DNA from: an uncultured Gammaproteobacteria bacterium
Lineage (GTDB): Bacteria; Cyanobacteriota; Vampirovibrionia; LMEP-6097
Assembly: GCA_964517685.1 (NCBI GenBank)
Contig: CAZFCF010000001.1
Location: forward strand, 153,458 to 217,457
Length of the DNA: 64,000 nucleotides
Direction of reading: 5' to 3'
Both the position numbers and the translations under genes were made by a program. This document shows positions 5,634-61,712 of the stretch, in pieces. The notes under the pieces are model-generated. The model was not told where the DNA came from, made no database searches, and saw nothing but the letters and a program-made list of their open reading frames with translations. Numbering within the stretch: the stretch's first letter is position 1; each line of letters begins with the position of its first letter.

Positions 5634-8409
5634 GAATTAAAGTCCTTAGAAGTTCTTGGCTAGTATTTAATGCTGCTAATTTACTTGTTTGTGTTTGTTT
5701 AAAATTTTCAAAGAGCTGATTCCTTTTATTTGCAAATTCTCTGGTTGAATTAGTCAGAATATTTTCAAGTGGATTAAGACTAATATTCATAAGTCCACTA
5801 GAACGAGTGCTTTTCATAAATACAGTACCCGCGTTATTCAAGAGCCCTGAATTAATGATTTCAGATTCTTTCTCTGTTAAATTACTAAATCGTGAAATTT
5901 CAAATCTATCTTTAAATTCTTTCAATTGAAAAACAAAAGAACAAGAAGAGTTCGAATGAACTTCAGCAGGTAGGTCACAAGGTTTTTGGGAGATAGTCCA
6001 AAGCCCAAGATCTAGTCCTCTACCAGCTCTGGCGAGGTGAGTAAGTAAGTCTTTTGCGTATACTGACTTATTACTGCCAAATAATTTCCATGCTTCATCA
6101 ATAATTAAATTGGTCTTAGCTTGCTTGAAGAAAACTATTTTTTTGGAAATAAAATTAACTACTAGAAATAAACTGGCTCTAATAAAGCTCTCATCACTAG
6201 TGATTTTGGAAAAAGTGAATAGAACTAAGCGATCGTTAATTTTAAGTTCTTGACCATCAGCAAGAGCAGCATAAATACCATTACTGATATAACAATATGG
6301 AGAAATGATTTCTAACCATTCTTTGCTTAATGCTGCTGAATTAGTTTCTGTATAAGCTTTCCATAGATTGTATAAATCACTAAAACGAGGTTTAGCATAT
6401 TGTGCATAGAGCTCTTTAAGGCTCTGTATCAAGAAAGCCTTCTCACCTGTCTGTAATTCTTTATCAGGACTTTTCAGTAGTTTTAGAAAATTAATTAAAT
6501 CATCGATGTGTTGATTGAGATTGTATCTTGGACATTGAGTAAATTCAAAAGGTGCAAATAAAGACTCACCTTCATCTAAGTTGATCTTGTCTATTTCTAT
6601 AATTTTGCCACCTAGATAATTAGTGAAGAAGCTCCAACCATCTTCAGTACTATCTACTATGTAAAAAAATCTATCTTGCTCGGCAAACATCCTTAATAAG
6701 AGGATTTTGGCTAAGACGGTTTTGCCAGAACCCGAATCACCAATAAAATTAAAATTTCTATTGTGAAACTCTGAGCGATTATAGTCATCTACAAAAATTA
6801 CTTTTTGTGATTTATGATCAAAGCCTGCTATGAAACCTTCTTTCGAGCCAATTTGTGATCTTATGAAGGGGAAGCAAGCTTTAGCAAAGTCTAAACAGGC
6901 AAAGTGCATTTCCTTGTCATTTAGCTTGTTATAGGCAAAGGGTAGCGAATAGTGATAGTTTGGAACCTGTTGCCTATCTAGTCCTGAAATCTTGGAATAT
7001 TTAATTGAGCTTAAAATACTATTATCGATTTTTTGTAATTCATTTAGATCTTTACAAAAAATAGTAATGAAAATTGATATATCAAAACTTATAGCTTTCT
7101 CTAAAAGTTTCTGACTGGCAAGTTCGGTTTCTTTTATGATTGCTAAAGTGCTTTGCCTGCTGAGGTTTGAGAGTTGTTTAGAGTAGATGGATTTTTGTTC
7201 TAATTTTAATCTGTCCTTTAAAGCATTGCGGCTTAGTAACTGAATGCTAATTATGGATTTACAAGAAGTGTTTTTGATGAAATCATAAACCCAAAAATCT
7301 AAGTCACCGCTTTCTGGACTGAAAACCATTCGATAGGTTTTTGTAATGGTCGGGGAATCTTTGCTTGATTTATGCTCTATATACTTTGCTCTATCAATTA
7401 GTTTAATTTCTTCATTAGTTAAGGACTGGATCCTTACGCTTCGCTCAGGATGACGATTAGGGTCGAAGTATTCTTTACCAAGCCATTTTTCTGTGAAATT
7501 TTGTAAATCTATATGCTCTAATTGTTCTGATTGAATATTATTGTTTTGGAAAAATTCTTGGATCTTTTTGATTTTCTGTTTGAGTAAATAATTTTCCTCT
7601 ATAAGTGCTTGCTGCTCTTTTTCTAAAATTGCTTCTTTGTTTTTATTAAAATATTTATTGTAGAAAGCAAACAAAGACTTAAAAATTGGGTGAATGTTGT
7701 TTCTTTGGTTTTTTTGCCTGATAATCATATAAAAATTAGTTTCTGGAATAAATTTCTCTTCGCTTGTTTTGGCTTGAAGGTAGTCACTGTATGCTTTTTG
7801 GTAGTTTTGATAGTTAAGACAATCGCTCTGGATATCATTTAGTATTGGCATTTGGTAAGAATCTATTTCAATAAAGAGCTGAATGATATCGCCATAGTTT
7901 TTTTCTGAAAAGAAATATGATTTGATATTTTTGATTTCAGAAACAGTAGCGAGAATATTTTCCCAATTGCGTAAGAAGTTTTCTATTTCAGTTTTATCCA
8001 GGCGATTTAAAACAATTCCACTTTGGATTTTTATAATTGCTATTTGATCGTTGTCCTTGCTAAGTAAAAAATCATCATAGAGAGATTTAATATCAATTAG
8101 TTCTTTAGTGGAGATATAGCCTTGAGAGTTTTTGCCTCTAGTAAAATGATGATTTGCAAATGGGTGAAATATAAATGAGCTATAGAATCCTTTGATTTCT
8201 GGTTCCTGACTGCTTTTGATAACTAAGCTAAGAATGATCATATAGAGCGTAGCTAGGAAAATTAGTAATGGGCTATTTAGGGCTAATCTTAAGGATAGGG
8301 CGATATAGAGGAGTGATATGGAAAGAAGAAGGATCTTCAATATTGCCCAAAGATTGAGCCCTAGAAATAGCTCAGGCTCTTTTTTAATATGTCGGAAGGT
8401 TTGGATCAT
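5626..8409 (-). CDS. virB4: type IV secretion ATPase, VirB3-VirB4 fusion type (CagE/TraG-like)
   Basis: N-terminal two TM helices (VirB3-like), Walker A GDSGSGKT, Walker B/VirB4 signature IIDEAWKLF, C-terminal WTISQKP (VirB4 motif). Confidence 0.75.
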   Translation of the reverse strand: MIQTFRHIKKEPELFLGLNLWAILKILLLSISLLYIALSLRLALNSPLLIFLATLYMIILSLVIKSSQEPEIKGFYSSFIFHPFANHHFTRGKNSQGYISTKELIDIKSLYDDFLLSKDNDQIAIIKIQSGIVLNRLDKTEIENFLRNWENILATVSEIKNIKSYFFSEKNYGDIIQLFIEIDSYQMPILNDIQSDCLNYQNYQKAYSDYLQAKTSEEKFIPETNFYMIIRQKNQRNNIHPIFKSLFAFYNKYFNKNKEAILEKEQQALIEENYLLKQKIKKIQEFFQNNNIQSEQLEHIDLQNFTEKWLGKEYFDPNRHPERSVRIQSLTNEEIKLIDRAKYIEHKSSKDSPTITKTYRMVFSPESGDLDFWVYDFIKNTSCKSIISIQLLSRNALKDRLKLEQKSIYSKQLSNLSRQSTLAIIKETELASQKLLEKAISFDISIFITIFCKDLNELQKIDNSILSSIKYSKISGLDRQQVPNYHYSLPFAYNKLNDKEMHFACLDFAKACFPFIRSQIGSKEGFIAGFDHKSQKVIFVDDYNRSEFHNRNFNFIGDSGSGKTVLAKILLLRMFAEQDRFFYIVDSTEDGWSFFTNYLGGKIIEIDKINLDEGESLFAPFEFTQCPRYNLNQHIDDLINFLKLLKSPDKELQTGEKAFLIQSLKELYAQYAKPRFSDLYNLWKAYTETNSAALSKEWLEIISPYCYISNGIYAALADGQELKINDRLVLFTFSKITSDESFIRASLFLVVNFISKKIVFFKQAKTNLIIDEAWKLFGSNKSVYAKDLLTHLARAGRGLDLGLWTISQKPCDLPAEVHSNSSCSFVFQLKEFKDRFEISRFSNLTEKESEIINSGLLNNAGTVFMKSTRSSGLMNISLNPLENILTNSTREFANKRNQLFENFKQTQTSKLAALNTSQELLRTLIHG

Positions 8410-31894: not shown

Positions 31895-32911
31895 ATGACA
31901 TACCACTTCAAACCTTATCATCCAATAGAAAATAGCTCGCGCGAAGACTATCTGCAAGAGCTAAGAGAGAATCAGCTTGACCAAGGAATTTTTGTAGTTC
32001 AAGAAAAAGTTCATGGTGGCAATTTAGTTTTTATTACTGATGGCAAAGAAATTCGCTGCGCGAAGAGAACAGGTTTACTGGATGATAATGAAAGGTTCTA
32101 CAACTTTCAGAAAGTAAGAGATCGCTATCGTGAAAAAATACTTGCAGCTTATAAGCGAGTTAAAGAGTTATATCCAGAGATGGATGAGTTATATATTTTC
32201 GGTGAAATCTTTGGTGGACAGTATCCACATCCCCAAGTGCCTAAAGTGGAGTCAGCGATTAAGTTACAACAAGGTGTATTTTATTCTCCTGATAATGATT
32301 TTTATGCATTTGATTTGCGAGTCTATAACAAAAGCTATTTGGATTTGGATCTCTCGACAAAGATTTTTGCAGAGCTGGGATTTATTCATGCTGAAATTCT
32401 TTTTCAAGGTTCGCTTGAAGAGTGCCTGGCTTATCCAAATGAATTTGAATCTAAGATTCCTGAGTATTTGGGTTTACCTTTAATCCCAGGCAATATTGCT
32501 GAAGGCGTAGTCATTAAGCCGCTTAGCGCGAAGTTTCTGCCAAGTAAAGAGAGGGTCATACTCAAGAATAAAAATCCAAAGTACGAAGAGAAAATTATCA
32601 AGAAACATAAAATTAAAAAACCTAGACCGAAGATATCGGATGCTGTAACTGATCTACGCCAAGAAACTTTGGCATATATCAATGAAAATCGTTTGAAATC
32701 TGTAACGAGCAAAATTGCTGAAGTTAATTTATCAGAGATCAAAAATGACCCTAAGCAAATTGGAAAATTCTTAGGACCCTTTGCGCAAGATGTTTTACAG
32801 GATTTCCTTAAAGACTTTGGGACTGAGTTTGAAGCTTTAGAAAAGGCTGATCAAAAACTTATTAAGCAGTTTGTTTCAGATGAGTGTATGAAGTTGTTGC
32901 GGAGAGTTTAG
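31895..32911 (+). CDS. ATP-dependent RNA ligase, T4 Rnl2 family (full length incl. C-terminal domain)
   Basis: EKVHGGNLVFI..IRCAKRTG (motif I; T4 Rnl2 EKIHGTNFSLI..VTCAKRTG), YIFGEIFGG (III), FYAFDL, AEGVVIKP (IV), VILKNKNPKY (V). Confidence 0.85.
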   Translation: MTYHFKPYHPIENSSREDYLQELRENQLDQGIFVVQEKVHGGNLVFITDGKEIRCAKRTGLLDDNERFYNFQKVRDRYREKILAAYKRVKELYPEMDELYIFGEIFGGQYPHPQVPKVESAIKLQQGVFYSPDNDFYAFDLRVYNKSYLDLDLSTKIFAELGFIHAEILFQGSLEECLAYPNEFESKIPEYLGLPLIPGNIAEGVVIKPLSAKFLPSKERVILKNKNPKYEEKIIKKHKIKKPRPKISDAVTDLRQETLAYINENRLKSVTSKIAEVNLSEIKNDPKQIGKFLGPFAQDVLQDFLKDFGTEFEALEKADQKLIKQFVSDECMKLLRRV

Positions 32912-47024: not shown

Positions 47025-47489
47025 ATGAATTCAAATTTTATAAACATAGTTCTCTACCAACCCGAGATCCCGCAGAACAGTGGCAACATCGCCAGAATGT
47101 GCGTGGCAAATGATCTTAAGCTGCATTGGATTAAACCAATGGGTTTTGAAATCAGCGATAAATATCTTAAACGCTCGGCTTTAGATTATTGGGAATTTCT
47201 TGATTATCAAGTCTATGAAAGTTGGCAGGAATTTATCCAAGGAAAGGATCTCAGTAAAGTTTGGTTCTTAACAACTAAATCTACTAAAACTTTTTGGGAT
47301 GTGAAATTTTCCCAAGGTGACTATTTGGTTTTTGGTCCAGAGACTAAAGGCTTACCGATGGAACTGATGCAAACTAATTGGGATAATGCAATTACTGTAC
47401 CCATGAGTTCTGAAAATTCGCGTAGCTTGAATTTAGCTAGTACGGTACAAACCGTTTACTATGAGGCTTTTAGGCAGTTAAAAGATTAG
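47025..47489 (+). CDS. trmL: tRNA (cytidine/uridine-34 2'-O)-methyltransferase, SPOUT
   Basis: 154 aa, IVLYQPEIPQNSGNIARMC N-terminus typical of TrmL/YibK. Confidence 0.75.
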   Translation: MNSNFINIVLYQPEIPQNSGNIARMCVANDLKLHWIKPMGFEISDKYLKRSALDYWEFLDYQVYESWQEFIQGKDLSKVWFLTTKSTKTFWDVKFSQGDYLVFGPETKGLPMELMQTNWDNAITVPMSSENSRSLNLASTVQTVYYEAFRQLKD

Positions 47490-50400
47490 CCATGTGCTCC
47501 AGCATAAGCTCTAGATTTAAGATTTAAGAATCCACTTCTTTTATCAATAACATTTGCTTTTAAATCCCACTCTTCTTTAAGTGATAAGATTTTTTTATCA
47601 GACTCTGTTCTTTCTTCTTCTGTTTTACTTGCCACATCAAAAAGTCTTTGAATCGTGCCCCCTAGGAGAGCTTGCATTGTATTGTAAAAATTTGGATTGT
47701 TATGACCACCATAATTATGAGCAACTTCATGAGCTTGTACTTCTAATATTGCAGCCAATGGTCCATCAAATAAAGATTTATGTAAACCAATTCCTTTACC
47801 TTGGAAATTAACTCCTTTAGCACCATTACCTGTAAAAATAAATACCGGTGTATCTATTTTTACATCAGTAGCTTCATGAAGAAAGTTTTTTAGAATTTCC
47901 AATTGTACTAGGTGCCTATGTTCTGGATTATCAACGATTTTAAAATTTTTGATTTGGTGTTCTTTGCCACTTTGTGCTGCTTCGATTTTTTGTTTTAATT
48001 TTGCTAAAGCTTTATCTTTCTCTGATACTTGGACTGTGTCAGTTTCAATTCCATGTGAATTAAATTTCTCAACAAAAGTTGCTATATCATCGCCTTTAGT
48101 ATATTCAGCATCTTTCGGAGCATCACCATAAGTCTTTACTTGAGACCATCTCGTGAATTCATCCTGATCAGAGGTATCTTTTCTCTCAGTAGGTAAGTTT
48201 TCTGTAAAGCCTGCAATTTCTTTTTCTAATTTGCTAGTATCAATTCTTTTTAATCTTTTTGCTAAATCATATGCAAGTTCTATAGTGGTATTTTTAAGTT
48301 TTTCTGTTTCATTGACAAGTTTAGTTCCTTTCTTTAATAGTGACTGACCAACTTCTATAACTTCATCTTGTAATTTATGTTCAGCTTCGCTTAAAGTTTT
48401 ATTTCCAGTTGTTATTAATTTTGCAATTCCTTTTGCGCCTTCAGTAACAATGTTAGCTATTAAAATTTGGGGATGAGGTAATGATGACGTAGTTGTTTTG
48501 TCTTTAATTTTAGTACTGTTGCTGACAGCAATTTCAGGATCTATCTTTGCTTTTATAACAGGCTTGCTAGCCACATTACTAGTAAGCAAATTATCCATAA
48601 AGCTAAACCATAGTACAGCAGTAGTTGCTGCTGTTAAGCCTATAAGACTTGTAGTTACTAGTGCTAGTTTGCTTTTCTTTGCAGGGATGGGCTTTACTAC
48701 TATTGTGGAATTTACCTTAAAATCCTCTTGTTTATTAAGTTCTGGTGTTGGATCGTTTGATACTGAAATATTCTTAGCTGCTTCTGCTGCCATTCTTTCA
48801 GTTAAGGTTACTAAAGCTTCTTGAGCATTGGCAAATGCTACTAGAGGATCCGTGCCTCTTTGAATTTCTGCTAATGCATCTGCTATAGCTAGTTCGGCAC
48901 CGTTCTTTACTGTTTTTTCTTTCACTTCGTTAGTTGGAGGATTATATTCAGGTTTCCAAATATTGTGTTCGTCAAAACTAAAAACTGTTTTGAAAATTTC
49001 CAAATCTTCATCATTGAGTTTAAAAGAGAATCTTTCTTCATTAGCTTTGGTATTTATAAATGGTATTATTCTAGTCATTAGGTTATTTTTTTTAGCTTCA
49101 GAATCATAATTAATATTAAAAGTTGCTAAATGTAGTTGAGCTATTAAGCTAGGATATTGTAATACTTTGTTTTCCAAGCCCCAGAAAATAAGATTTCTAA
49201 TAGTCTGTATCCAAGTTTTTTGATTTAATAATTCATCGCCTATAATCTTACTGAAAAAAGGCTTCATCATTAAATTTGCTGCAATATTTTGATTGAAGAT
49301 AAATTCTAATTCTCCATCTTTGCCTAGTTTTAATTCAACAGCACTGCTTCTAAGTTGATTTTGTAATTCAATAAAGAATCCTCTATGATCATTTGAAGAA
49401 ATATCAAGAATTGTGTAATCAACTTCAATTCCTAGATTTTGCATGACTTCTTTAAAAGCAACATTAGCTGCTTTACTATTAGGTTGTCTATTGTGGACTT
49501 CAGAAATTAAATTAATTGGTTGTGGTTCTTGTACAATTATTGGTCTAGGTTTTTGGTAGAGTGGGACTCCTAATGCAGTAAAAAATTTAGGGCAAATTGT
49601 TTTTCCTTGGCGTTTTAATTCTGCTATTTCTTCATCTGAAATATACTCTGTAACATCGTTGTTTATTGCAATAAAGTCTTTCCCTGGAAAAAGTTCTTTA
49701 AGAGTATTTAAAGTAAATTTATTTGCGAAATCCCATTGTATGTCTTCAACTATTTGCTCCAATAAAATAAAAGCTCCATTTCTATTTCTATTAGAATCTG
49801 TTTCATCTCTATGTTGACTCCATATAGGAAAAGACTTTACTAGTTGTACTTTTCTGTCATTACTATTCATTGTTTTAGTAAGTTTTTCTATACATTTCTT
49901 GAAAGCATATTGGTTTAAGGGATTACGATCGGAATCATGGTGAAATTTTCCGCTAGCACCTAGTTCTAGAGTTACTCCCTCCGCACCTTTAAAAAAGCCT
50001 TCTTCTGGATTTACATTTGATAGATAACTCCAAGGTTGTCCTTGAATAAATAATTCACCTCTTGTTTTGAGGCTATCATGCCATTTAATTCTAAAATTAC
50101 ATGGTCTTTCTTGTGTAACACCATTTTTAGTTTTTTTCTCAATGCCTATATAATGATAGTCAGGGTTTTGTAGAGAAGGATGATCTTTATGAGGAGCCAT
50201 GTCTTTAAGTTTTGCAAAGGTTTTGATAAATTCTTCGTTATCAGTCTCTATTACGTAAGAGCAAGTCCCAGCTTCATACTCATTTGAATTTAACTCTCTT
50301 AATTCTGATAATAAATAAGCTTCAGGAGGCTCAACTCCATGTTGAAGAAGAACTTTCTGAACTTCTTCTATTGGTGGTATACGATATGTGACGGACCAAC

Positions 50401-50890
50401 CTTCACCAATAACAGTTAAATTATCAATGATCTTATGTTCTAATAAATCTCTAGAGCTTTCTTTTAAACCAATTCCTAAGCCACCTGCACTATTATTGTC
50501 ATTTGCTTTACCCGTTGCAATTGCTGTTAGAGCTTGGAAACTAGGAAAAGCCCAATTGCCTTTTATAGTGAGTCTCGTTTTTTTATTTGAAGCCGGAGAT
50601 AGAGTAACATCTACTCCATCAAGATTTTGTCCTTGAGGATTTTCATCTATCCAATTTTGAATTCCAATTTCTCTAACATACCAAGGTATTGGTTTATGTT
50701 TTTCTTCAGTCTCACTTCCTATTCTGCCTTTTTTGAGAGCTGTAACCGCAAATAAAGCTTCTACAGATACACCTGGATGTTTGATTGCATAATAAGTTCT
50801 AAATGCTTCCCCAGCCGAGACCTGTTTTAGCTTTTTACTATTTTGGCCAGATACTTCATTTGTTGGTGATAATAATGGTGGAAATTGCAT
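47486..50890 (-). CDS. very large (1134 aa) hypothetical protein with C-terminal HExxH motif
   Basis: central TM (LALVTTSLIGLTAATTAVLWF), C-terminal AHEVAHNYGGHNNP; overlaps trmL by 4 nt. Confidence 0.5.
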   Translation of the reverse strand: MQFPPLLSPTNEVSGQNSKKLKQVSAGEAFRTYYAIKHPGVSVEALFAVTALKKGRIGSETEEKHKPIPWYVREIGIQNWIDENPQGQNLDGVDVTLSPASNKKTRLTIKGNWAFPSFQALTAIATGKANDNNSAGGLGIGLKESSRDLLEHKIIDNLTVIGEGWSVTYRIPPIEEVQKVLLQHGVEPPEAYLLSELRELNSNEYEAGTCSYVIETDNEEFIKTFAKLKDMAPHKDHPSLQNPDYHYIGIEKKTKNGVTQERPCNFRIKWHDSLKTRGELFIQGQPWSYLSNVNPEEGFFKGAEGVTLELGASGKFHHDSDRNPLNQYAFKKCIEKLTKTMNSNDRKVQLVKSFPIWSQHRDETDSNRNRNGAFILLEQIVEDIQWDFANKFTLNTLKELFPGKDFIAINNDVTEYISDEEIAELKRQGKTICPKFFTALGVPLYQKPRPIIVQEPQPINLISEVHNRQPNSKAANVAFKEVMQNLGIEVDYTILDISSNDHRGFFIELQNQLRSSAVELKLGKDGELEFIFNQNIAANLMMKPFFSKIIGDELLNQKTWIQTIRNLIFWGLENKVLQYPSLIAQLHLATFNINYDSEAKKNNLMTRIIPFINTKANEERFSFKLNDEDLEIFKTVFSFDEHNIWKPEYNPPTNEVKEKTVKNGAELAIADALAEIQRGTDPLVAFANAQEALVTLTERMAAEAAKNISVSNDPTPELNKQEDFKVNSTIVVKPIPAKKSKLALVTTSLIGLTAATTAVLWFSFMDNLLTSNVASKPVIKAKIDPEIAVSNSTKIKDKTTTSSLPHPQILIANIVTEGAKGIAKLITTGNKTLSEAEHKLQDEVIEVGQSLLKKGTKLVNETEKLKNTTIELAYDLAKRLKRIDTSKLEKEIAGFTENLPTERKDTSDQDEFTRWSQVKTYGDAPKDAEYTKGDDIATFVEKFNSHGIETDTVQVSEKDKALAKLKQKIEAAQSGKEHQIKNFKIVDNPEHRHLVQLEILKNFLHEATDVKIDTPVFIFTGNGAKGVNFQGKGIGLHKSLFDGPLAAILEVQAHEVAHNYGGHNNPNFYNTMQALLGGTIQRLFDVASKTEEERTESDKKILSLKEEWDLKANVIDKRSGFLNLKSRAYAGAHG

Positions 50891-53238: not shown

Positions 53239-53742
53239 GTGACTACAAACAGATTAACTGAACATTTAAAGCCGCAACAGCATCACTCTGTAAATAGAGT
53301 TTTTGATGTTTTTGATAAGCAATTAACTTGCAAACAAAAAACTGAAGCAAGAAGAATTACAGCAGCAGATCTTTTGCAACCAGTAGCTGAAATGAAATCA
53401 CTAGAAGTTTTACGTTATTTGGAAGATATAGGACTAGCGCAAAAAATTCAAGAAGAGTTTTACTATATTACTGGTAAAAAGATTAAAGTCAATGAATTAT
53501 TACTGTTTGATATGCATCGTATTGATGATAATAAGGACGTAGAATTATTAAAAGAAATCATCTCTAAAAAATTTAGAGATATCTATCAAGAAAGGCTTAC
53601 CAATGGACCAATCTTAGATATAGAAACAATTAAGGCTATTGTTCAGTATTTAAAAATTGATGACTTTCAGTTTGATGATGAGGTTCATTTTGCAAACTTA
53701 AAATTTACTAGAAGGCGCTTAGCTAAATATCTTTCAAACTAA
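53239..53742 (+). CDS. hypothetical protein
   Basis: 167-aa ORF. Confidence 0.4.
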   Translation: MTTNRLTEHLKPQQHHSVNRVFDVFDKQLTCKQKTEARRITAADLLQPVAEMKSLEVLRYLEDIGLAQKIQEEFYYITGKKIKVNELLLFDMHRIDDNKDVELLKEIISKKFRDIYQERLTNGPILDIETIKAIVQYLKIDDFQFDDEVHFANLKFTRRRLAKYLSN

Positions 53743-53761: not shown

Positions 53762-54122
53762 GCAAGTAGTTCAGGCAATCGCTTTTCCGTAAGGAGGAGA
53801 GGAAAGTCCGGGCACCGCTAGAGCTTAGGTTGCTGGTTAATTGCCAGTGCGCGTGAGCGTGAGGACAGTGCCACAGAAAGATACCGCCAAGAAATTGGTA
53901 AGGGTGCAAAGGTGAGGTAAGAGCTCACCAGCAAGATCGAGAGGTCTTGGCTCGGTAAACCCCACTGAAGGTGCAAGGTAAAGGTATTTAAGTTTAGGAT
54001 TAAAGCTGCTCGCTTCCCTAGATTTACCTGAATTCCGCTAGAGGCTAAGAGTAATCTTGGTCCCAGATAGATGATTGTTCATGATGCAAATCATTACAGA
54101 ACCCGGCTTATAGGCTACTTGC
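53762..54122 (+). ncRNA. rnpB: RNase P RNA, bacterial type A
   Basis: GAGGAAAGTCCGGGC (P4 5'), GGTAAGGGTGCAAAGGTGAGGTAAGAGCTCACC (P10/11/12), ACAGAACCCGGCTTA (P4 3'); P1 gcaagtag/ctacttgc. Confidence 0.9.
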
Positions 54123-54173
54123 AATTTTTATCAAAATACTATTTGAGCAAGCTTTGTAAGCAATGAGGTTTAT

Positions 54174-54869
54174 ATGGTAAACACTTGCTCAGTAACTGGA
54201 ACTCTTAGAATAGGGAACGTCATCGATCCTAAGGAAAAATTTCAAAGAGATTTTAAATTATCTATTTCGCAAGCTTGGAAGGCTGGTGTTACAGCAGACG
54301 TCAAGCCTTTAATGGAACTTCTCTCTAATAATTCTAATCATGTAACAGATGCAAATCTAGATACTTTAGCAAATCTTTTTAAAAGACTTACACCAGAGCA
54401 AGGAATTGAAATTGCTACTTCTAAATATATACAAGACGCACTAGCTAGCTTTGATAGTGGTGATCAAGGAATTACATCACTTTCTATGGCTCTTGAATCT
54501 ATGAAGTCACATACATTAGGTGATGAAAAGGCTTTTGATGGGATAACTAAAGTGATTCATGATATAGATGTACAAAAATTACAAAGTGAGATATCAGCAG
54601 CTCCTAATACTAAGTCAGAAATTAATAAAAAAAGAGATTCTATTGCATATATCATTAATGTTGCTTTGCAAAAAATACCTGAATTTGACGATAAACTTAA
54701 TGAACTTATATCTACGGAGATCGTAGCTACGGAATTACCAAAGCAGGGAATGCATCCAAGTATGGCTGTATTTTACGCTATGAGAGAATTAGCTGATGTT
54801 AGATTTAATACTGATAAATTAAAATGGCATCTTTTTTTATTTGCTAATAGAAATTCAATAGCTGCTTAA
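54174..54869 (+). CDS. hypothetical protein
   Basis: 231-aa ORF between rnpB and the first rnpB-3' direct repeat. Confidence 0.4.
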   Translation: MVNTCSVTGTLRIGNVIDPKEKFQRDFKLSISQAWKAGVTADVKPLMELLSNNSNHVTDANLDTLANLFKRLTPEQGIEIATSKYIQDALASFDSGDQGITSLSMALESMKSHTLGDEKAFDGITKVIHDIDVQKLQSEISAAPNTKSEINKKRDSIAYIINVALQKIPEFDDKLNELISTEIVATELPKQGMHPSMAVFYAMRELADVRFNTDKLKWHLFLFANRNSIAA

Positions 54870-54874
54870 AATCG

Positions 54875-54938
54875 TCATCCTGAGGGTAAAGAAAGCAAGT
54901 GCCGTCATTGCGAGCCCTCGAAGAGGGCGTGGCAATCC
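54875..54938. repeat. palindromic repeat (GTCATCCTGAGG..GTCATTGCGAGCCCTCGAAGAGGGCGTGGCAATCC)
   Basis: module composition as above. Confidence 0.85.
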
Positions 54939-55051
54939 ATCTTAGGGAAGTTTTGATAAAGCTGCTTTATCTTTAAAACCAATAGCTAATTTTGACTCTC
55001 ATACAGTACTTTTATATTTAGATGATTTGGGAATAAAAAAATAGTATTCAA

Positions 55052-55073
55052 ATAGGCTACTTGCGATTTTTGT
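55052..55073 (+). repeat. direct repeat of rnpB 3' end (ATAGGCTACTTGCGATTTTTGT)
   Basis: matches 54110-54131 ataggctacttgcaatttttat (20/22). Confidence 0.8.
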
Positions 55074-55142
55074 TATGTCAAAGAAATTTTACCGTTTTGG
55101 AATTGCGATTAGGATTTGGAGATCCAGTATGTTGATTAAGTC

Positions 55143-55175
55143 TTGACGAATATCAACGCTTTAAGTTAAGATAAT
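55143..55175 (+). promoter_or_regulatory. sigma70-like promoter, -10 ends 6 nt before GTG start (leaderless)
   Basis: TTGACG-18 nt-TAAGATAAT. Confidence 0.5.
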
Positions 55176-55178
55176 CTA

Positions 55179-57824
55179 GTGTCTTTTTTAGAACAATTAT
55201 CAAGATTTTCTATTTTAACGCGACCCACTTCAAAATTAGGCAAAGTTTTAAAAGAAGTTCATCCTTATTCATCATCTGATAAAAATAGCTACGATGAGAT
55301 TTTAAGAAGATTAGGTCCTGTATTTGATAGTTTAGACAAACTTTTTCAAAGGACTAGGAATGGATATGATGACAAAGAAATTATTGAATTATCAGCTAAA
55401 TATACATTTTTAAAAGAAAAATTAAATACGAAGAAAACACCTTTACCAGAGAAAAACAAATATCTTCTAGAATTCAAAAACCTGATTCATGGAACTAATA
55501 TATTGAATCAATTCTATGATTTACTTCAATCTGAAAAAGTACAAGCATTTAATATTAATCGACAACGTCATCCTACAATTCAACTCTTTTTTGATGGATT
55601 AAACTTTAAAGGAAAAAATTTACAGAATATTGTTTTTAGGAATGCAAAAATTATAGATTCTAATCTTTGTGAAATTGATTTAACAGATTCAGATTGTATT
55701 GAAACTGTATTTTCAAAATCAGCTCTATATAAATTAAATTTTACTGAATCTCAATTAAATTCAGCTACCTTTACGAAAGTAAATGGTTCCAATATTAACT
55801 TCACCGATTCAAATTTACCTAAAGCTAAATTTGAAAATTGTGAACTTTTTAAAGCTAATTTTTGTGGAGCAAATCTTAGTAATGTTGAAATAAAAGATTC
55901 TTCGCTTTATGAAGCAAACTTTAGTAAGGCAGACCTGAGTCAAGCTCAAATAAATAAATTAAAATCTCATAATTCAAATTTTGAAAGAGCAATTTTCAAG
56001 AATACCAATCTCTCTAACTCTTTTTTATTTGATGCAAATTTTAAAAATGCAGAATTAACATCAACTGAATTTAATAATGTTGATTTAACTGGTGCTGATT
56101 TTAGTGGAGCCAAACTTTTGAAAGTTAATTTCTATCACTGTAATCTCACGGGTGCAAATTTTAGGAACTGTGATCTTTACCGTATAACAAATCAACAGCT
56201 TGATCAAATTATAAATCCCCTATCTGTTCGTAATGTTAATTTTCAGGAGGGAATTAAATGGTTATTTAAAAATATTGATTCTAAAGAACTAAGTAATATT
56301 ACTACTCATAAAATAATTAGATTTTTAAATATAGACTCTAATTTAGTAAGCCGTATTGATCCAACATTGCTAAGTAAAATTAATACTATTAACCCAAAAG
56401 AATTTATTGCAAGATTATTTTTGATTTATGAAATAAATATTTTAATCGAGAGAGTTTACAGAGAAAATCATAAAACTTTGGATCAACTCTGCAGAGTTTT
56501 ATATAATTCATGTGGAAATAATCTTGATGATTTAATACTTGAAGGCAAGCTCTTAAGTAATCATCTTAGTTCAGGCAATGAAAGTATTTTAAGAGACTCT
56601 TTGGAATTGGTTTTTGATACTTTTGTTTTACCAAGATTAGAAAAGTTTTTAGATACAGCTGCAATTAAAAAGTTAAAGCAATGGCAAGTATCAAGCTTTA
56701 AAGAAAAATTAATGCCATATTTTATGATTGCAATTTCTCAAAATAGATTTTTTGATCCATCTTCTGATTATTCTAAGTTAAAAGGAGAAGTAGCTTCACT
56801 ACCAAAGAGTGCAAATTATAAAATGCCGTCATTGTTACTTAATCTATCAAGGGGCATTCATCATCCTGTTATAGCTTATGATACAGCCGTAAGACATATA
56901 CTTCCTGAAGGCTCTTGGTATCCCATTTTAATTTCTGCAAATAATCAAGTTGAAATAACTTTGCCAAATACTGATAAAAAGTATTTAGTTAGAAATTTGA
57001 TCAATTACAAAGATTTTGATTACGAAACTTTTGTATTAGGTCATTGTATCGGTCGAGGTGTATTTTACGTTAACAAAGCAAAAGAAGGAGGACATCATTA
57101 TTTTTCTATTAGAGAAGCAGAAACTGGTATACCAATATCTACGGTGGAATTTGCTCTAAATGAGCGCTTACAATTACAAAAAATGCAACATAAAGGAAAA
57201 AATAATTTGCCACCAAGTGATGCTGCCAAAAAGATATTGGAAATATTTTTACGAGGTGTTAAAGACGGTACTTATCCTCTATCTTTAAAACAAACTGGTA
57301 AAGATTCCAGTGTTGAAAAATTATCTGTTTTTGAGAATGCAGTTGGTACTTTTTGTGATGATGATACTGAAGTCACAAAGAATCGTAGAATATTTGATAC
57401 AACTAATGTACACTCAGTTCAAGTAAGAGCTTGGATTAAATTAGCGCAACCTAAAAATGGCTATTTAATAAATCGACTACAAAATGGCGAAACTTATAAA
57501 TTGAATCCTGGTATTGGTACCACTAATAATTTAGGCGAAACAATTCAACTTGGTGGCTATAGAGCTAAGCCAGAAGGTATTCCTTATGATAACTATTTTA
57601 TACCTAACTCCTGTAGAGGGGATCTTAGTTTAGAATCTATTAATCCAAGAAAAGTGAATGATAAACGTTTGAGATTTTCACAATTTTCTGGAAATGATTT
57701 GGCTGAGATTGACAAAGGTATAGAAAGATTTTTTAATACCAAAGTTACAGATCAAATGAGTTTTGATGATCTAATAAAATCTACTATTATAGAAGTTGTG
57801 CAAACAGAAGAACCTCCTCTTTAA
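55179..57824 (+). CDS. pentapeptide-repeat protein, paralogue 1 (881 aa)
   Basis: A(D/N)LxxA(N/D)F repeats over residues ~150-340; conserved N-domain and ~540-aa C-domain shared with paralogue 2; GTG start. Confidence 0.7.
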   Translation: MSFLEQLSRFSILTRPTSKLGKVLKEVHPYSSSDKNSYDEILRRLGPVFDSLDKLFQRTRNGYDDKEIIELSAKYTFLKEKLNTKKTPLPEKNKYLLEFKNLIHGTNILNQFYDLLQSEKVQAFNINRQRHPTIQLFFDGLNFKGKNLQNIVFRNAKIIDSNLCEIDLTDSDCIETVFSKSALYKLNFTESQLNSATFTKVNGSNINFTDSNLPKAKFENCELFKANFCGANLSNVEIKDSSLYEANFSKADLSQAQINKLKSHNSNFERAIFKNTNLSNSFLFDANFKNAELTSTEFNNVDLTGADFSGAKLLKVNFYHCNLTGANFRNCDLYRITNQQLDQIINPLSVRNVNFQEGIKWLFKNIDSKELSNITTHKIIRFLNIDSNLVSRIDPTLLSKINTINPKEFIARLFLIYEINILIERVYRENHKTLDQLCRVLYNSCGNNLDDLILEGKLLSNHLSSGNESILRDSLELVFDTFVLPRLEKFLDTAAIKKLKQWQVSSFKEKLMPYFMIAISQNRFFDPSSDYSKLKGEVASLPKSANYKMPSLLLNLSRGIHHPVIAYDTAVRHILPEGSWYPILISANNQVEITLPNTDKKYLVRNLINYKDFDYETFVLGHCIGRGVFYVNKAKEGGHHYFSIREAETGIPISTVEFALNERLQLQKMQHKGKNNLPPSDAAKKILEIFLRGVKDGTYPLSLKQTGKDSSVEKLSVFENAVGTFCDDDTEVTKNRRIFDTTNVHSVQVRAWIKLAQPKNGYLINRLQNGETYKLNPGIGTTNNLGETIQLGGYRAKPEGIPYDNYFIPNSCRGDLSLESINPRKVNDKRLRFSQFSGNDLAEIDKGIERFFNTKVTDQMSFDDLIKSTIIEVVQTEEPPL

Positions 57825-57857
57825 TAAGTTCCTCTGGAGCGATACTCTTCCGTAAAT

Positions 57858-57978
57858 AATTTACTAGTCCCAATATGGGTCAATCTGCCATCGGCAGAGT
57901 CTTGAATTAATAAGGCAGTCTCGGTGTCTCTGATACCGCCAGCAGCTTTGATAGAAATATTTCTTTTGGAACCATATT
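57858..57978 (-). pseudogene. deoC 3' fragment (duplicate of 60877-61000)
   Basis: ~95% identical to internal C-terminal segment of deoC (KAAGGIRDTETALLIQDSADGRLTHIGTS). Confidence 0.75.
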
Positions 57979-57987
57979 ATTAAGTAA

Positions 57988-58012
57988 GCTTATAGGCTAC
58001 TTGCGATTTCTG
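57988..58012 (+). repeat. direct repeat of rnpB 3' end (GCTTATAGGCTACTTGCGATTTCTG)
   Basis: 17/17 match to rnpB ggcttataggctacttgc. Confidence 0.8.
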
Positions 58013-58023
58013 CCATTTAGGTA

Positions 58024-58056
58024 TTGACAAGTATTACCGCTTCGGATTAAGATAAT
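58024..58056 (+). promoter_or_regulatory. sigma70-like promoter, leaderless GTG start (paralogue 2)
   Basis: TTGACA-18 nt-TAAGATAAT then GTG 4 nt after. Confidence 0.5.
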
Positions 58057-58059
58057 CTG

Positions 58060-60849
58060 GTGGCGTTTTTAGAACGATTAGCTAATTTTTCTACTTTAAC
58101 TCAGCCTTCTACAAGGCTTGGAAAAATTCTTGCCGGAATTCATCCCTATTTGATACTTAAGAAAAAAAATGATTATAATGACATATTAAGAAAATTACAA
58201 CCCGTCTTTAATAGCTTGGATAGGCTTTTTCAAATAGGGCAAAGAAATTCTGATAATAAAGAGATTAGAGAATTATCATTAGAATATAGATCTTTAGGAC
58301 AACAATTACAATCTACGAAAGCAACTTTAGAACAAAAAAAGAATTATCTTTTAGAGTTCAAAAAATTAGTTTATAAAACTAATAGACTGAATCAATTTCA
58401 TGATTTACTTCAATCTGAGAATGTAAGAGTATTTAACGCTAACAGACAACTATATCCTACAATTCAAACTCTTTTTCATGGGTTAAACCTTAAAAGAAAA
58501 AATTTACAAAATATCGATTTTAGAAATACGAATATTGCGCAATCAAGTCTTTCTGAAATTGATTTAACAGATTCAGATTGTATAGGAATTAAATTTTCGG
58601 ATCTAGCTTTATATAAATTAAATTTCACGAATGCCCAATTAGATTCAGCTAGCTTTACAGAAGTAAAAGGTTCTAATATTGATTTCACTAATTCTCATTT
58701 ACCTGAAGCTAAATTCGAAAATTGTAAGCTCTTAAAAGCAAATTTTCATGAAGCAGATCTCAGTGAGGTCATAATAAAGAATTCCTCTTTCCAGGAAGCA
58801 GATTTTAGTGATGCAGAACTGATATCAACTAAGTTTAGAGACGTTGATTTAACTGGTGTTGATTTTAGTGGAACCAAACTTTTTAAAGTTGATTTCTTTG
58901 GAAGCAATCTTATGGGTGCAAATTTTAAAAATGCAGAATTAATGTCAACTGAGTTTGGAAGCGTTGATTTAACTGGTGCTGACTTTAAAGGAGCCAAGCT
59001 TTCTAACGCTGATTTTGATAGCAGCAATCTTATGGGTGCAGATTTTAGTAATTGTAATCTTCGCAATGTAAAAATCACAAGTCGGCAGCTTGAGCAGATT
59101 ATAAATCCTCTCTCTGCTAATAATGTTAATTTCAGGGAAGGAATCAAATGGTTATTTAAAAATATTGACTCTAAAGAATTAAGTAATCTTAGAGTTCATC
59201 AAGTAATTAGATTTTTAGATATTGACTTTTCTTTGATAAATAGTATTGATCCATCATTGCAAAGCAAAATTAATACAATTGATCCTAGAGAATTAATTGC
59301 AAGATTATATTTGATTTCTGAGACAGACATTTTTAGCAAGCATGTTTGCGCAGAAAATCATCAAGCTCGGAATCAACTCTGTAGAGTTTTATATAATTCA
59401 TGTGGAAATAATCTTGAGGATTTAATACATGAAGGTAAATTAGTTAATAGTGATCTTCGCTCAAATAATGCCAGTGATTTTAAAGACTCTTTGAACCTAG
59501 TTTTTGATACTTTTGTTTTACCAAGATTAGAAAAGTTTTTAGATACAACTGCAACTAAGGAGTTAAAGCAATGGCAGTTATCAAAATTTAGAGAAAAACT
59601 AATTCCATATTTGGTTATTGCAATTTCTCAAAATAGATTTTTTGATCCAAGCTCTGATTATTCTAAGCTAAAGGGGAAAGTAGCTTCACTACCTAAAAAT
59701 GCAAACTATAAAATGCCATCATTATTACTCAATATATCAAAAGGTATTCACAACCCTGTTGTCGCTTATGCTACAGCAGTAAGGCATATTAGTCCTGAAG
59801 GCTCATGGCATCCTATTTTAAATTCTGTGGCTAATCAAGTTGAAATCACTTTACCTAATAGTAATAGAAGATACTTAGTTAAAAATTTGATCAATTACAA
59901 AGATTTTGATTATGAATCTTCTGCATTAGGTCATTGCATCGGTCAAGGTGTACGTTACGTTAACAAAGCAAAGGGAGGTAAATACCATTATTTTTCTATA
60001 AGAGAAGCAGAAACGGGCAAGCCAGTATCTACCGTGGAGTTTGCTTTAGGACATGATGGTAGTCCTAGGGGTCCTTTTGAAGATCGTGATATTAGAGCCA
60101 GAAATAGTACTTCAATAGACAATCATTCTGATTATTTTTTACAACAAATCCAGCATAGAGGAAAAAGAAATTCGATACCAACTGCAGATGCCAAAGAGAT
60201 CCTGAAGATATTTTTACAAGGTGTCAAAGACGGTACTTATCCTATATCCTTAAAACCAATTGGTAAAGATTCTAGTACTGAAAAATTATCTGCTTTTGAA
60301 AATACTATTGGTACTTCTTTTGATGATACCGAAGTTATAAATAATCGTAAAATGTTTGATACAACTAATGTACATTCTATTCAAGCAAGAGCTTGGATTA
60401 AATTAGCGCAACCTAAAGACAGCCATTTAGAAAATCGACTACAGGATGGTGAAATTCAAGAATTAAACCCAGGTATTGGTGTCATTGACGAGGAAACTGG
60501 CGAAACAATTCAGCTTGGTGGCTATAGAGCCAAGCCAGAAGGTATTCCTTATGATAACTATTTTATACCTAACTCCTGTAGAGGAGATCTTAGTTTAGAA
60601 TCTATTAATCCAAGAAAAGTGAATGATAAACGTTTGAGATTTTCACAATTTTCTGGAAATGATTTGGCTGAGATTGACAAAGGTATAGAAAGATTTTTTA
60701 ATACCAAAGTTACAGATCAAATGAGTTTTGATGATCTAATAAAATCTACTATAGAAACTGTGCAAAAAGAAGAACTTCCGAAAAGAGATCTTGCGCACGG
60801 AGATCTTTTGATGATGGAGTTGGCTGCAATTATTGGGGATAATCAATAA
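58060..60849 (+). CDS. pentapeptide-repeat protein, paralogue 2 (929 aa, longer repeat tract)
   Basis: ~60% identity to paralogue 1 in N-domain, near-identical in last ~100 aa; extra pentapeptide units. Confidence 0.7.
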   Translation: MAFLERLANFSTLTQPSTRLGKILAGIHPYLILKKKNDYNDILRKLQPVFNSLDRLFQIGQRNSDNKEIRELSLEYRSLGQQLQSTKATLEQKKNYLLEFKKLVYKTNRLNQFHDLLQSENVRVFNANRQLYPTIQTLFHGLNLKRKNLQNIDFRNTNIAQSSLSEIDLTDSDCIGIKFSDLALYKLNFTNAQLDSASFTEVKGSNIDFTNSHLPEAKFENCKLLKANFHEADLSEVIIKNSSFQEADFSDAELISTKFRDVDLTGVDFSGTKLFKVDFFGSNLMGANFKNAELMSTEFGSVDLTGADFKGAKLSNADFDSSNLMGADFSNCNLRNVKITSRQLEQIINPLSANNVNFREGIKWLFKNIDSKELSNLRVHQVIRFLDIDFSLINSIDPSLQSKINTIDPRELIARLYLISETDIFSKHVCAENHQARNQLCRVLYNSCGNNLEDLIHEGKLVNSDLRSNNASDFKDSLNLVFDTFVLPRLEKFLDTTATKELKQWQLSKFREKLIPYLVIAISQNRFFDPSSDYSKLKGKVASLPKNANYKMPSLLLNISKGIHNPVVAYATAVRHISPEGSWHPILNSVANQVEITLPNSNRRYLVKNLINYKDFDYESSALGHCIGQGVRYVNKAKGGKYHYFSIREAETGKPVSTVEFALGHDGSPRGPFEDRDIRARNSTSIDNHSDYFLQQIQHRGKRNSIPTADAKEILKIFLQGVKDGTYPISLKPIGKDSSTEKLSAFENTIGTSFDDTEVINNRKMFDTTNVHSIQARAWIKLAQPKDSHLENRLQDGEIQELNPGIGVIDEETGETIQLGGYRAKPEGIPYDNYFIPNSCRGDLSLESINPRKVNDKRLRFSQFSGNDLAEIDKGIERFFNTKVTDQMSFDDLIKSTIETVQKEELPKRDLAHGDLLMMELAAIIGDNQ

Positions 60850-61712
60850 GTATTTTTACTTTCCGGCTCAGTAAACAATTTACTAGTCCCAATATGGGTC
60901 AATCTGCCATCGGCAGAGTCTTGAATTAATAAGGCAGTCTCAGTATCTCTGATACCGCCAGCAGCTTTGATAGAAATATTTCTCTTTGGATCATATTTGT
61001 TTAGTAGCTTTGCAATTAAGGAAATCAAGTTAGGTGAACTTGTTTTCAAAACCACTCCTGATTCCTCTTTGCTGCCTATATAACCAGTTGAGTTTTTATA
61101 AGCAAATTTTATTCTAGCTACTACATCAGGGTTACTTTCATAAAATCTTGCAACAACATCACTAAATATTTTTGCAGTTCTTTCAATTTCTTCGTCATTT
61201 AAAATTTCACAAGAAAAAATTGGTTTCATCCAAAATTTTTCTTCCGGGCGCTCTAATGAGAATTTATATAAGGTTTCAATTAAGCCTTGCAATTCTTTTT
61301 GTAAATTATCAAGATCACTAATTTTCATTACTGGATCAAGTTCTATAGCGCCGTCTCCAAGAGCATTAGCGGCTTCTACCTTCTTAGCTTCAAGGCTAAA
61401 ATTTCCTATTGAGGATTTTATTTTTTCTAAATTGTTAGCATCAGTTATTTCATATTTATTTTCAAGGAAACCAATTACGGCTGAAAGTCTGTAGTGTTGA
61501 TTTAGATTCATCAATTCTTTTACTTTAGATGGACGTATACATGCAGAATGTAAATCTTTATCTAAAACTGTATCTGCTAGAGTTTTTAGTTCTGCCAAAC
61601 TAGCGCTAGGATTTAAATTTGTTAAATCGATTAAATTATCAACTGTGCTTTCCATAATATCTATTAGTAACTGGATTGCCACGCCCATTCCATGGGCTCG
61701 CAATGACGGCAC
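60843..61712 (-). CDS. deoC: deoxyribose-phosphate aldolase
   Basis: C-terminal IKAAGGIRDTETALL..RLTHIGTSKLF matches DeoC KASGGIRT..RIGTS; N-terminal 20 aa (MPSLRAHGMGVAIQ) are repeat-encoded, real start probably MESTVDNL. Confidence 0.65.
   Translation of the reverse strand: MPSLRAHGMGVAIQLLIDIMESTVDNLIDLTNLNPSASLAELKTLADTVLDKDLHSACIRPSKVKELMNLNQHYRLSAVIGFLENKYEITDANNLEKIKSSIGNFSLEAKKVEAANALGDGAIELDPVMKISDLDNLQKELQGLIETLYKFSLERPEEKFWMKPIFSCEILNDEEIERTAKIFSDVVARFYESNPDVVARIKFAYKNSTGYIGSKEESGVVLKTSSPNLISLIAKLLNKYDPKRNISIKAAGGIRDTETALLIQDSADGRLTHIGTSKLFTEPESKNTY

Follow-up and report, generated by a model that had tools for sequence, protein, structure and literature searches.

Tyrosine integrases put genomic islands and prophages into the 3′ ends of tRNA or tmRNA genes, and in the streptococcal ICESt1/ICESt3 system integrase-less, cis-mobilisable elements accrete beside an integrative element, with three att copies in tandem. 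The locus described here lies in a 64-kb stretch of DNA (the whole stretch analysed, hereafter the window) and resembles the islands in having an intact RNA gene, rnpB, followed by accessory DNA that is absent in relatives, and in carrying direct repeats of the RNA gene's 3′ terminus. With the streptococcal accretions it shares three direct att-like copies that delimit segments without recombination genes, and with integron gene-cassette arrays it shares co-oriented genes, each behind a short repeat. It is also like the products of microhomology-mediated, RecA-independent tandem duplication with gene conversion: there are two colinear ~2.9-kb units bearing a paralogous pair, an internal fragment of the right-flank gene is joined to the unit's left end via 4 nt, and a 3′ tract is 99% homogenised. 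We conclude that this 6.7-kb pile-up of accessory genes was probably built by ordinary illegitimate recombination and not by an integrase targeting rnpB.

Results

Three direct copies of the rnpB 3′ end

The sequence-only reading had claimed that the rnpB 3′ end is repeated in three direct copies, each preceding a gene, and both claims were borne out. A motif scan of the 64-kb window found the 18-mer ATAGGCTACTTGCRATTT exactly at 54110, 55052 and 57992, and no further site with up to 3 mismatches. The chance expectation is ~0.18 matches, and three were reached in 0 of 100 shuffles. By ORF positions, copy 1 is followed by a 231-aa ORF (ORF231), copy 2 by PRP1 and copy 3 by PRP2, all on the plus strand, which places one motif copy in each of the three gaps among four co-oriented transcription units:

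53763–54125, plus strand: rnpB, a complete RNase P RNA of bacterial class A (match to Rfam RF00010 at 246 bits, covering model positions 1–367)
54110–54129, plus strand: copy 1 (R1), ATAGGCTACTTGCAATTTTT, the functional rnpB P1 3′ strand plus T-run
54174–54869, plus strand: ORF231, 231 aa, an ORFan (ORF list; Pfam/NCBIfam and database searches)
55052–55071, plus strand: copy 2 (R2), ATAGGCTACTTGCGATTTTT, G allele; rnpB homology begins at ATAGG
55179–57824, plus strand: PRP1, 881 aa (ORF list, domain searches)
57992–58009, plus strand: copy 3 (R3), ATAGGCTACTTGCGATTT, then CT; G allele, at the tandem duplication seam
58060–60849, plus strand: PRP2, 929 aa, PRP1 paralogue (ORF list, protein comparison)
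60843–61655, minus strand: gene for a deoC-like aldolase, 270 aa counted from MESTV; its ORF runs on into a palindromic element, up to 61712

The copies vary at one position, which is A in copy 1 (54110, the rnpB 3′ end) and G in the copies at 55052 and 57992. Copy 3 has an upstream GCTT in common with rnpB, giving 17 identical nt ahead of the A/G position, and copy 2 has a downstream ATTTTT in common with copy 1. The separate metagenome assemblies ERZ3430527 and ERZ3430528, whose source samples have the runs SRR7369907 and SRR7369924, gave the same locus sequence base for base, and a mis-join is unlikely since the shared stretches of 17–21 nt are shorter than typical final assembly k-mers. 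The motif was also scanned for in two public collections, both without the source genome: the genome collection returned 9 chance matches plus the rnpB of relative L011, and the metagenome collection 26 chance matches, none at an rnpB.

Relatives with an empty site

A comparison of the rnpB locus in relatives, proposed in the sequence-only reading, confirmed that the locus varies among them. In three relatives (L011, L022 and L015), where HK and dnaE are syntenic, the convergent deoC-like aldolase gene comes directly after rnpB. Hence, the 6.7 kb between rnpB and the aldolase gene in the window, spanning about 54130–60842, is a lineage-specific addition. By the aldolase gene, the L021 lineage is nearest to the window, at 77%.

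A tandem duplication seam at copy 3

Left of copy 3 lies a piece of the resident downstream gene, and the following features are needed to read this junction:

57826–57991, minus strand: 3′-end fragment of the deoC-like gene, about its last 56 codons, ending in GCTT at 57988–57991
61000–61017: parental breakpoint in the deoC-like gene, TTTAGTAGCTT followed across the break by TGCAATT (sequence comparison)
57534–57787, plus strand: gene-conversion tract, 99% identical to 60499–60752

Positions 57849–57978 are 94% identical to 60868–60997, the aldolase 3′ end. At the seam the aldolase homology reaches ...AAGTAAGCTT and then switches to ATAGGCTAC; the parental aldolase reads ...TAGTAGCTT followed by TGCAATT, and the GCTT there is absent in relatives. 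The novel junction is a fusion of the aldolase 3′ fragment, ...AGTAAGCTT, to ATAGGCTAC, with GCTT at both parental sites, so that copy 3 is joined via a 4-nt GCTT microhomology to a ~166-nt aldolase 3′-end fragment. With a fragment of the resident right-hand gene directly to its left, copy 3 has the signature of a tandem duplication rather than that of an attR junction. This junction shows copy 3 to be the seam of a tandem duplication by illegitimate recombination, and the fallback offered by the sequence-only reading, the boundary of a tandem segmental duplication, was correct for this copy. We considered and rejected the idea that the rnpB end and the aldolase breakpoint share special homeology: their wider similarity was no greater than the genomic background, the score equalling the genomic mean, and an anchored result of 3/1000 largely reflects GCTT.

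The two adjacent units, 55052–57991 and 57992–~61010, align over their full length (colinear, ~2.9 kb each) and are 57–100% identical. Between the paralogues, dS declines along the gene, from 1.0 (5′ end) to 0.2 (3′ end), and reaches ~0 in a 254-nt tract; the 99% identity of this tract indicates that the paralogues' 3′ ends have recently undergone gene conversion. The duplication alone does not account for all repeat copies. One duplication yields two, so that another event is required for the third (the R1/R2 pair that brackets ORF231). The locus also differs from other microhomology-mediated tandem duplications in that the left breakpoint fell inside a structured RNA gene, so the duplicated unit begins with the rnpB P1 3′ strand; moreover, the rnpB piece is far better conserved than its surroundings, and there is a third copy for which the duplication by itself does not account.

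The PRP genes and their promoters

PRP1 has pentapeptide repeats at roughly aa 140–340 and a ~540-aa C-terminal domain with a weak PcfJ-like match. PRP2 is 66% identical to the 881-aa PRP1, and its stop and that of the deoC-like gene overlap by 7 nt. The search for full-length PRP relatives returned the paralogue only; relatives of the C-terminal domain were found at 31–33% identity, and the one looked up was not at an rnpB. Upstream of the two genes we noted:

55072–55127, plus strand: segment "a", a decayed duplicate of the stretch from PRP promoter to start, in which 37/64 positions match the region that follows copy 3
55143–55172, plus strand: PRP1 promoter-like site, TTGACG-18-TAAGAT, ending 6 nt ahead of the GTG start
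58024–58053, plus strand: PRP2 promoter-like site, TTGACA-18-TAAGAT (promoter scan)

The position of the PRP1 site, ending 6 nt before the GTG, suggests that the PRP1 mRNA may be leaderless. A decayed second motif ahead of the working PRP1 promoter was considered, but this stretch is better read as belonging to the duplicated promoter segment, as its −10 region. A distant PRP homologue in L028 has the same TTAAGATAAT..GTG arrangement upstream and does not adjoin rnpB, which argues that the promoter travelled with the gene.

Proposed history of the locus

Inferred from the relatives, the ancestor would have had rnpB, a ~15-nt spacer and the aldolase gene end (step 1). A PRP gene with its own promoter would then have entered the spacer directly after the rnpB T-run (step 2). 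Next, to judge from the junction, the rnpB 3′ end, ...CCGGCTT before ATAGG..., would have recombined with the aldolase site, ...AGTAGCTT before TGCAA..., ~168 nt inside the gene, with GCTT alone in common; the product would be a tandem unit of the last 13 nt of rnpB plus T-run, promoter, PRP and ~166 nt of aldolase 3′ end (step 3). Copy 2 would head the other unit, now separated from rnpB by the 0.94-kb segment of ORF231, palindrome and possible relic (step 4). Among the relatives found, none has a single PRP adjoining rnpB; steps 2–4, and the order in which they came, are therefore reconstructed. Later, gene conversion homogenised the 3′ ends of the two units (step 5). Under this history the extra motif copies are fossils of the rnpB tip.

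The allele at the variable position belongs to step 5. In copy 1, the A pairs with the T preceding GCAAGTAG at the rnpB 5′ end. The P1 closing pair is 5′ T/3′ A in the window, C/G in L011 and T/A in L015, and the G allele occurs in the functional rnpB of L011 and L022, both of which bracket the window lineage in the DeoC tree. Copies 2 and 3 have kept the G allele of the relatives' functional rnpB. In the live rnpB, the pair that closes P1 later changed from C-G to T-A. Because the fossil copies retain the older allele, this compensatory P1 base-pair switch can be dated at the locus.

The segment between copies 1 and 2

Copies 1 and 2 form a 20-bp direct repeat (R1/R2) around a 0.94-kb segment that contains ORF231, a palindromic repeat element and what may be a relic of a 167-aa gene, which itself stands directly upstream of rnpB:

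54870–54945, plus strand: copy of a palindromic repeat element of the CGTCATTGCGAGC...GGCAATCC type, with ~21 occurrences in the window
54961–55035, plus strand: possible pseudogene relic of the 167-aa gene (tblastn; marginal)

ORF231 had no Pfam or NCBIfam match, returned itself only in a database search and showed no similarity to the 167-aa protein. A site-specific event, or one of Campbell type, possibly gave rise to the ORF231 segment. Illegitimate recombination as set out in steps 1–5 does not account for the left junction of copy 2, and this counts against that history.

For the origin of copy 2 only, a somewhat doubtful alternative is a second module of 167-aa gene and rnpB, of which erosion by deletion would have left a relic of 27 codons and the final 20 nt of rnpB. 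With similar reserve, that module could be the product of a tandem duplication, or it could have entered on circular DNA, together with ORF231, by Campbell-type insertion. The relic is on the same strand and in the right order, ending 17 nt ahead of copy 2, and its translation is 44–52% identical to residues 42–68 of the 167-aa protein and its L011 orthologue. In tblastn against the whole window it was the best non-self match both times, but the E-values (0.038, and 0.013 with the L011 orthologue) are marginal, and the relic could stem from an unrelated paralogue on the insert. ORF231 would still require a separate origin, and besides the 20 nt no rnpB remnant was detected by alignment or covariance model: local and end-anchored alignments of the DNA upstream of copy 2 to rnpB were no better than shuffles (p 0.25–0.57), and a low-threshold Rfam scan of 54126–58100 returned no partial RNase P match, and longer rnpB homology upstream of copy 2 was rejected. 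An anchored test of the same DNA for a decayed aldolase fragment, whose presence would imply a triplicated array, was marginal (p 0.017–0.037), and in an unbiased scan the aldolase region was outside the top matches.

Conservation of the extra copies

Copies 2 and 3 are identical at 18/18 positions, whereas the adjacent non-coding DNA is 58–69% identical and the paralogues' 5′ dS is about 1. Relative to the neighbourhood, this identity has a probability of about 5e-5 to 1e-3 (Fisher p = 2e-4 and 3e-3). Perfect identity amid diverged flanks points to constraint or homogenisation, and it counts against an account in which the copies are fossils only, as pure neutral fossils should have decayed. 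In both copies the rnpB homology begins at the same nucleotide (ATAGG), which is unexpected for independent random breakpoints.

Compatible with the illegitimate-recombination origin of the copies is a tentative proposal, to which we give limited credence, that the duplicated rnpB tip was co-opted as a cis element (one that stops or insulates transcription, binds a protein or serves as a core for recombination) and has been kept intact by selection. In its favour, the two copies stayed identical while segment "a" beside copy 2 decayed to 58% and promoter "b" retains its −35 and −10 boxes only, and the motif stands in every gap of the array; a deletion-prone genome sparing only the functional element would explain the common start nucleotide. 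However, the constraint is deduced from one sequence pair, the distance from motif to functional −35 differs between the units (71 vs 14 nt), and the motif is absent upstream of the L028 PRP homologue and elsewhere in the window. A terminator or hairpin role was rejected, as copies 2 and 3 had no significant RNA fold (z-scores −0.9 to +1.5), no hairpin partner or complementary sequence and no match in a terminator scan. It is unlikely that the motif is selected at every gene boundary of the array, whether because a recombinase acting in trans uses it as the core for shuffling integrase-less cassettes at rnpB, or because it signals transcript ends or insulation without a hairpin.

Comparison with integrase-mediated systems

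The sequence-only reading had favoured site-specific integrations in tandem, each restoring the 3′ end of rnpB, and had suggested a search for integrases. That search was negative: no integrase, recombinase or transposase domain came up when every ORF of 140 aa or more in the 64-kb window was scanned with Pfam and NCBIfam, or in the gene lists of the flanking contigs. Nor did the scan of the 64-kb window find a motif copy between PRP2 and the aldolase gene, where the insert has its distal end, so that direct repeats bracket only the 0.94-kb ORF231 segment and not the whole insert. Of the marks of an integrase island, the empty site in related genomes is present (L011, L022 and L015) and a recombinase within or next to the insert is absent. 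The locus differs from tRNA and tmRNA islands in having neither a recombinase nor a distal repeat, in its target and in the piece of the resident downstream gene that adjoins one of its repeats. It differs from the ICESt1/ICESt3 accretions in having no integrase-bearing partner element, an open-ended last segment and a seam that bears the marks of duplication, and from integron arrays in lacking an IntI gene and any attC-like imperfect palindrome (no significant fold at copies 2 and 3), its genes having their own promoters.

Serial integration, in which the 18–20-nt motif would be an att core and a recombinase encoded elsewhere would have inserted cassettes, regenerating the rnpB tip each time, could draw on the three direct copies, whose boundaries are sharp and shared and whose cores match perfectly, the 20-bp repeat around the ORF231 segment, the relatives' empty sites and the slightly lower G+C of the PRP genes (0.25–0.31 vs about 0.34–0.40 in the surroundings), but is very unlikely and goes unsupported, given no recombinase in the 64 kb or neighbouring contigs, an array not bounded as attL...attR, the microhomology join of copy 3 to the resident gene fragment, a motif found once only in the L011 MAG (inside rnpB), and no report of rnpB as an integration site in the literature searched, where the retrieved papers use it as a marker or reference gene.

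Discussion

Apart from the conservation of copies 2 and 3, the locus is an ordinary rearrangement. Short repeats of RNA-gene 3′ ends are routinely taken as att sites, and here a tandem duplication with its breakpoint in the tip of the RNA gene gives the same pattern. An att repeat and a duplication seam can be told apart by the junction sequence together with the empty sites of relatives. If the conserved fossils are functional, a piece of a ribozyme gene would have been reused as a regulatory or recombination signal.

Three copies of the rnpB 3′ tip

The 18-mer ATAGGCTACTTGCRATTT, which the Rfam alignment places at the 3′ strand of helix P1 and the following T-run, has three exact matches in the window, at 54110 (copy 1, the rnpB tip), 55052 (copy 2) and 57992 (copy 3), with A at its variable position in copy 1 and G in copies 2 and 3. 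No further site was found in the window, even with 3 mismatches allowed; chance alone would give about 0.18 sites, and 0 of 100 shuffles produced three. The sequence over all three copies is identical in two independent metagenome assemblies. The repeat that the sequence-only reading had pointed out is real and non-random, and that reading's observation that one gene follows each copy was likewise borne out (ORF231, PRP1 and PRP2, all on the + strand). Upstream, GCTT is common to copy 3 and rnpB; downstream, ATTTTT is common to copy 2 and rnpB.

Features of the rnpB locus
53763–54125, + strand, rnpB, the one complete RNase P RNA, class A (246 bits, Rfam)
54174–54869, + strand, ORF231 (231-aa ORFan), gene after copy 1
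55179–57824, + strand, PRP1 (pentapeptide-repeat protein, 881 aa), gene after copy 2
58060–60849, + strand, PRP2 (929 aa, 66% identical to PRP1), gene after copy 3
60843–61655, − strand, deoC-like aldolase gene, right of PRP2

A lineage-specific addition beside rnpB

Along the window the genes run histidine kinase, 167-aa gene, rnpB, ORF231, PRP1 and PRP2, then the opposite-strand aldolase and 87-aa genes, then dnaE. Apart from nine chance matches, a motif scan of species-representative genomes gave a single true relative, L011 (a MAG that carries the label uncultured Gammaproteobacteria), where the match is the rnpB tip. L011 has the same synteny, but its convergent aldolase stop codon lies ~15 nt past rnpB. 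The rnpB gene likewise abuts the aldolase gene in the relatives L022 (aldolase 72% identical) and L015 (more distant, 49%), and adjoins it in L017, where rnpB is in reverse orientation with respect to the kinase and aldolase genes. Because rnpB adjoins the aldolase gene in relatives, the ~6.7 kb at about 54130–60842 is a lineage-specific addition to an otherwise nearly empty spacer. The arrangement, compared among relatives as had been proposed, thus varies, with L011, L022 and L015 lacking the ~6.7 kb.

Several other features of the region were recorded. The L017 rnpB (5570–6044, ~475 nt) is roughly 110 nt longer than that of the window. A 167/169-aa gene fills the kinase–rnpB gap only in the window/L011 clade (window 53239–53742, +; L011 4679–5188, −); L015 and L017 lack it, and their kinase gene lies directly against rnpB. 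The window and L011 versions are just 43% identical, so fast-evolving orphan genes were gained on both rnpB flanks. A 1134-aa ORF (47486–50890, −) with no Pfam or NCBIfam match separates the SpoU methylase and 368-aa genes; these are adjacent in L011, so the ORF is a second lineage-specific orphan-gene insertion, ~3 kb from rnpB. Housekeeping genes surround an AbiEii toxin gene, whose partner is weakly AbiEi-like (44525–45908, −), and a T4 Rnl2-type RNA ligase gene (31895–32911, +).

A duplication seam at copy 3

Directly left of copy 3, 57849–57978 is a 94% copy of 60868–60997, the aldolase gene's 3′ end, which lies right of PRP2. In the alignment, aldolase homology runs to ...TTAAGTAAGCTT and then changes to ATAGGCTACTTGCG; the parental sequences are ...TTTAGTAGCTT|TGCAATT in the aldolase gene and ...CCGGCTT|ATAGGC in rnpB. 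The junction thus connects the rnpB tip to a position ~168 nt within the aldolase gene through four bases common to both, GCTT, and outside this microhomology the similarity of the parental sites does not exceed genomic background. The aldolase genes of relatives lack GCTT at the breakpoint position, so the aldolase piece derives from the window's own gene. The two units, 55052–57991 and 57992–~61010, are colinear over their whole length. This structure shows copy 3 to be the seam of a tandem duplication that arose by microhomology-mediated, illegitimate recombination, and it does not resemble an attR junction. The suggestion that the repeats mark the boundary of a tandem segmental duplication thus holds for copy 3, at the aldolase/rnpB junction; copy 2 brackets a small insertion.

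The overall synonymous divergence of the PRP1–PRP2 pair is 0.47; at the 5′ end it is about 1.0, and towards the 3′ end it declines to about 0.2. A 254-nt tract (57534–57787 vs 60499–60752) is 99% identical, the rest of the paralogues 57–90%, and the aldolase fragment is 92–98% identical to its parent gene except in its last ~28 nt. This 5′-to-3′ fall, together with the near-identical 3′ tracts, indicates an old duplication whose 3′ part has been homogenised by gene conversion, recently in the 254-nt tract. The metagenome assembly ERZ3430528 is broken inside PRP2, probably owing to the identical tract. At its C terminus PRP2 has an extension of ~20 residues (60754–60849), not in PRP1, that is encoded across the tail of the convergent aldolase gene.

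The segment between copies 1 and 2

A 20-bp direct repeat, made up of copies 1 and 2 with 19/20 positions identical, flanks 922 bp that hold ORF231, one copy of a palindromic element and ~105 nt of unassigned DNA. No ORF231 homologue was found among 5.8 billion proteins. Homology of copy 2 to rnpB starts at ATAGG; the DNA upstream has no significant similarity to rnpB and marginal similarity to the aldolase fragment. The strongest clue lies at 54961–55035, which ends 17 nt before copy 2 and has the strand of the 167-aa gene found just upstream of rnpB; it translates into 25–27 residues that are 44–52% identical to residues 42–68 of the 167-aa protein, the best non-self match in the window (E=0.038; E=0.013 with the L011 orthologue). 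If this match is real, copy 2 would be the tip of an eroded second [167-aa gene–rnpB] module, a tentative reading that we consider rather unlikely; such a module could stem from duplication or from the Campbell-type insertion of a circle that included it. On the 3′ side, copy 2 is followed by a second, decayed version of the promoter-to-start segment (55072–55127), made by duplication, and then the working promoter.

In rnpB, the base that follows CTTGC forms a pair with the 5′-end base preceding GCAAGTAG, as T with A in the window and L015 and as C with G in L011. The G allele occurs at the tip in both L011 and L022, which bracket the window lineage in an aldolase neighbour-joining tree. Read most simply, the ancestral G is preserved in copies 2 and 3, and the live rnpB later made a compensatory switch; a foreign source for the two copies is then not needed.

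The palindromic element (core CGTCATTGCGAGC ... GGCAATCC), which we take to resemble Rickettsia palindromic elements, has about 21 sites in the window on both strands (for example at 2544, 20906, 25921, 28146, 43514, 44192, 51682, 54903 and 61696). Some copies overlap ORF starts, and one extends the aldolase ORF to 61712. In two relatives (L014, L021), such elements directly follow the aldolase stop, in the spacer that took the insertion in the window.

PRP promoters

The GTG start of both PRP genes comes 6 nt after the end of a −10-like TAAGAT (55143–55181; 58024–58062). A distant PRP homologue (32% identical), located elsewhere in the genome of another organism, L028, is preceded by the same TTAAGATAAT..GTG arrangement (300–320), so the promoter belongs to the PRP gene and not to an rnpB-linked element; the arrangement suggests that the family may use leaderless mRNAs. 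A strong promoter-like site, matching consensus only (58172–58200, −, TTGTAA-17-TATAAT, 10/12), lies inside the PRP2 5′ end, and from there predicted transcription would run back over copy 3 into the aldolase fragment.

Serial site-specific integration at rnpB, integrase-style and regenerating its 3′ end, had been proposed from the direct copies and is not supported: the junction at copy 3 is that of a duplication, no domain of an integrase, recombinase or transposase was found among the ORFs of 140 aa or more in the 64 kb or in gene lists of contigs reaching ~10 kb past dnaE, the far array end has no motif copy (the PRP2 and aldolase stop codons overlap there by 7 nt), the L011 MAG carries the motif in rnpB only, the PRP promoter arrangement also occurs away from rnpB in L028, and the literature searched did not describe rnpB as an attachment site. 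The G+C of the PRP genes (0.25–0.31, slightly below surroundings) fits accessory or fast-evolving genes and is uninformative on mechanism.

Conservation of copies 2 and 3

Copies 2 and 3 are identical at 18/18 positions and start at the same nucleotide. The decayed promoter copy contiguous with copy 2 matches its counterpart at 37/64 positions, the working promoter matches between units at 37/54 with just the −35 and −10 boxes kept, and in the coding region next to it synonymous sites are close to saturated. Given the promoter-segment identities, the probability of 18/18 is about 5e-5 to 1e-3 (Fisher p = 2e-4 and 3e-3), and even at the lowest regional pS (0.19) it is 0.02. Motif constraint, with deletion trimming the rest, would explain both the identity and the shared start, and repeated recombination at the motif would do so as well; with one sequence pair, each is a lead and not a result. 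No hairpin, complementary partner or terminator-like site was found at copies 2 and 3, and motif-to-promoter spacing is not conserved between units. This minor conservation signal is a part that duplication and accretion do not explain; it is duplication and accretion that we moderately favour, which would make the locus an instance of a familiar kind of rearrangement.
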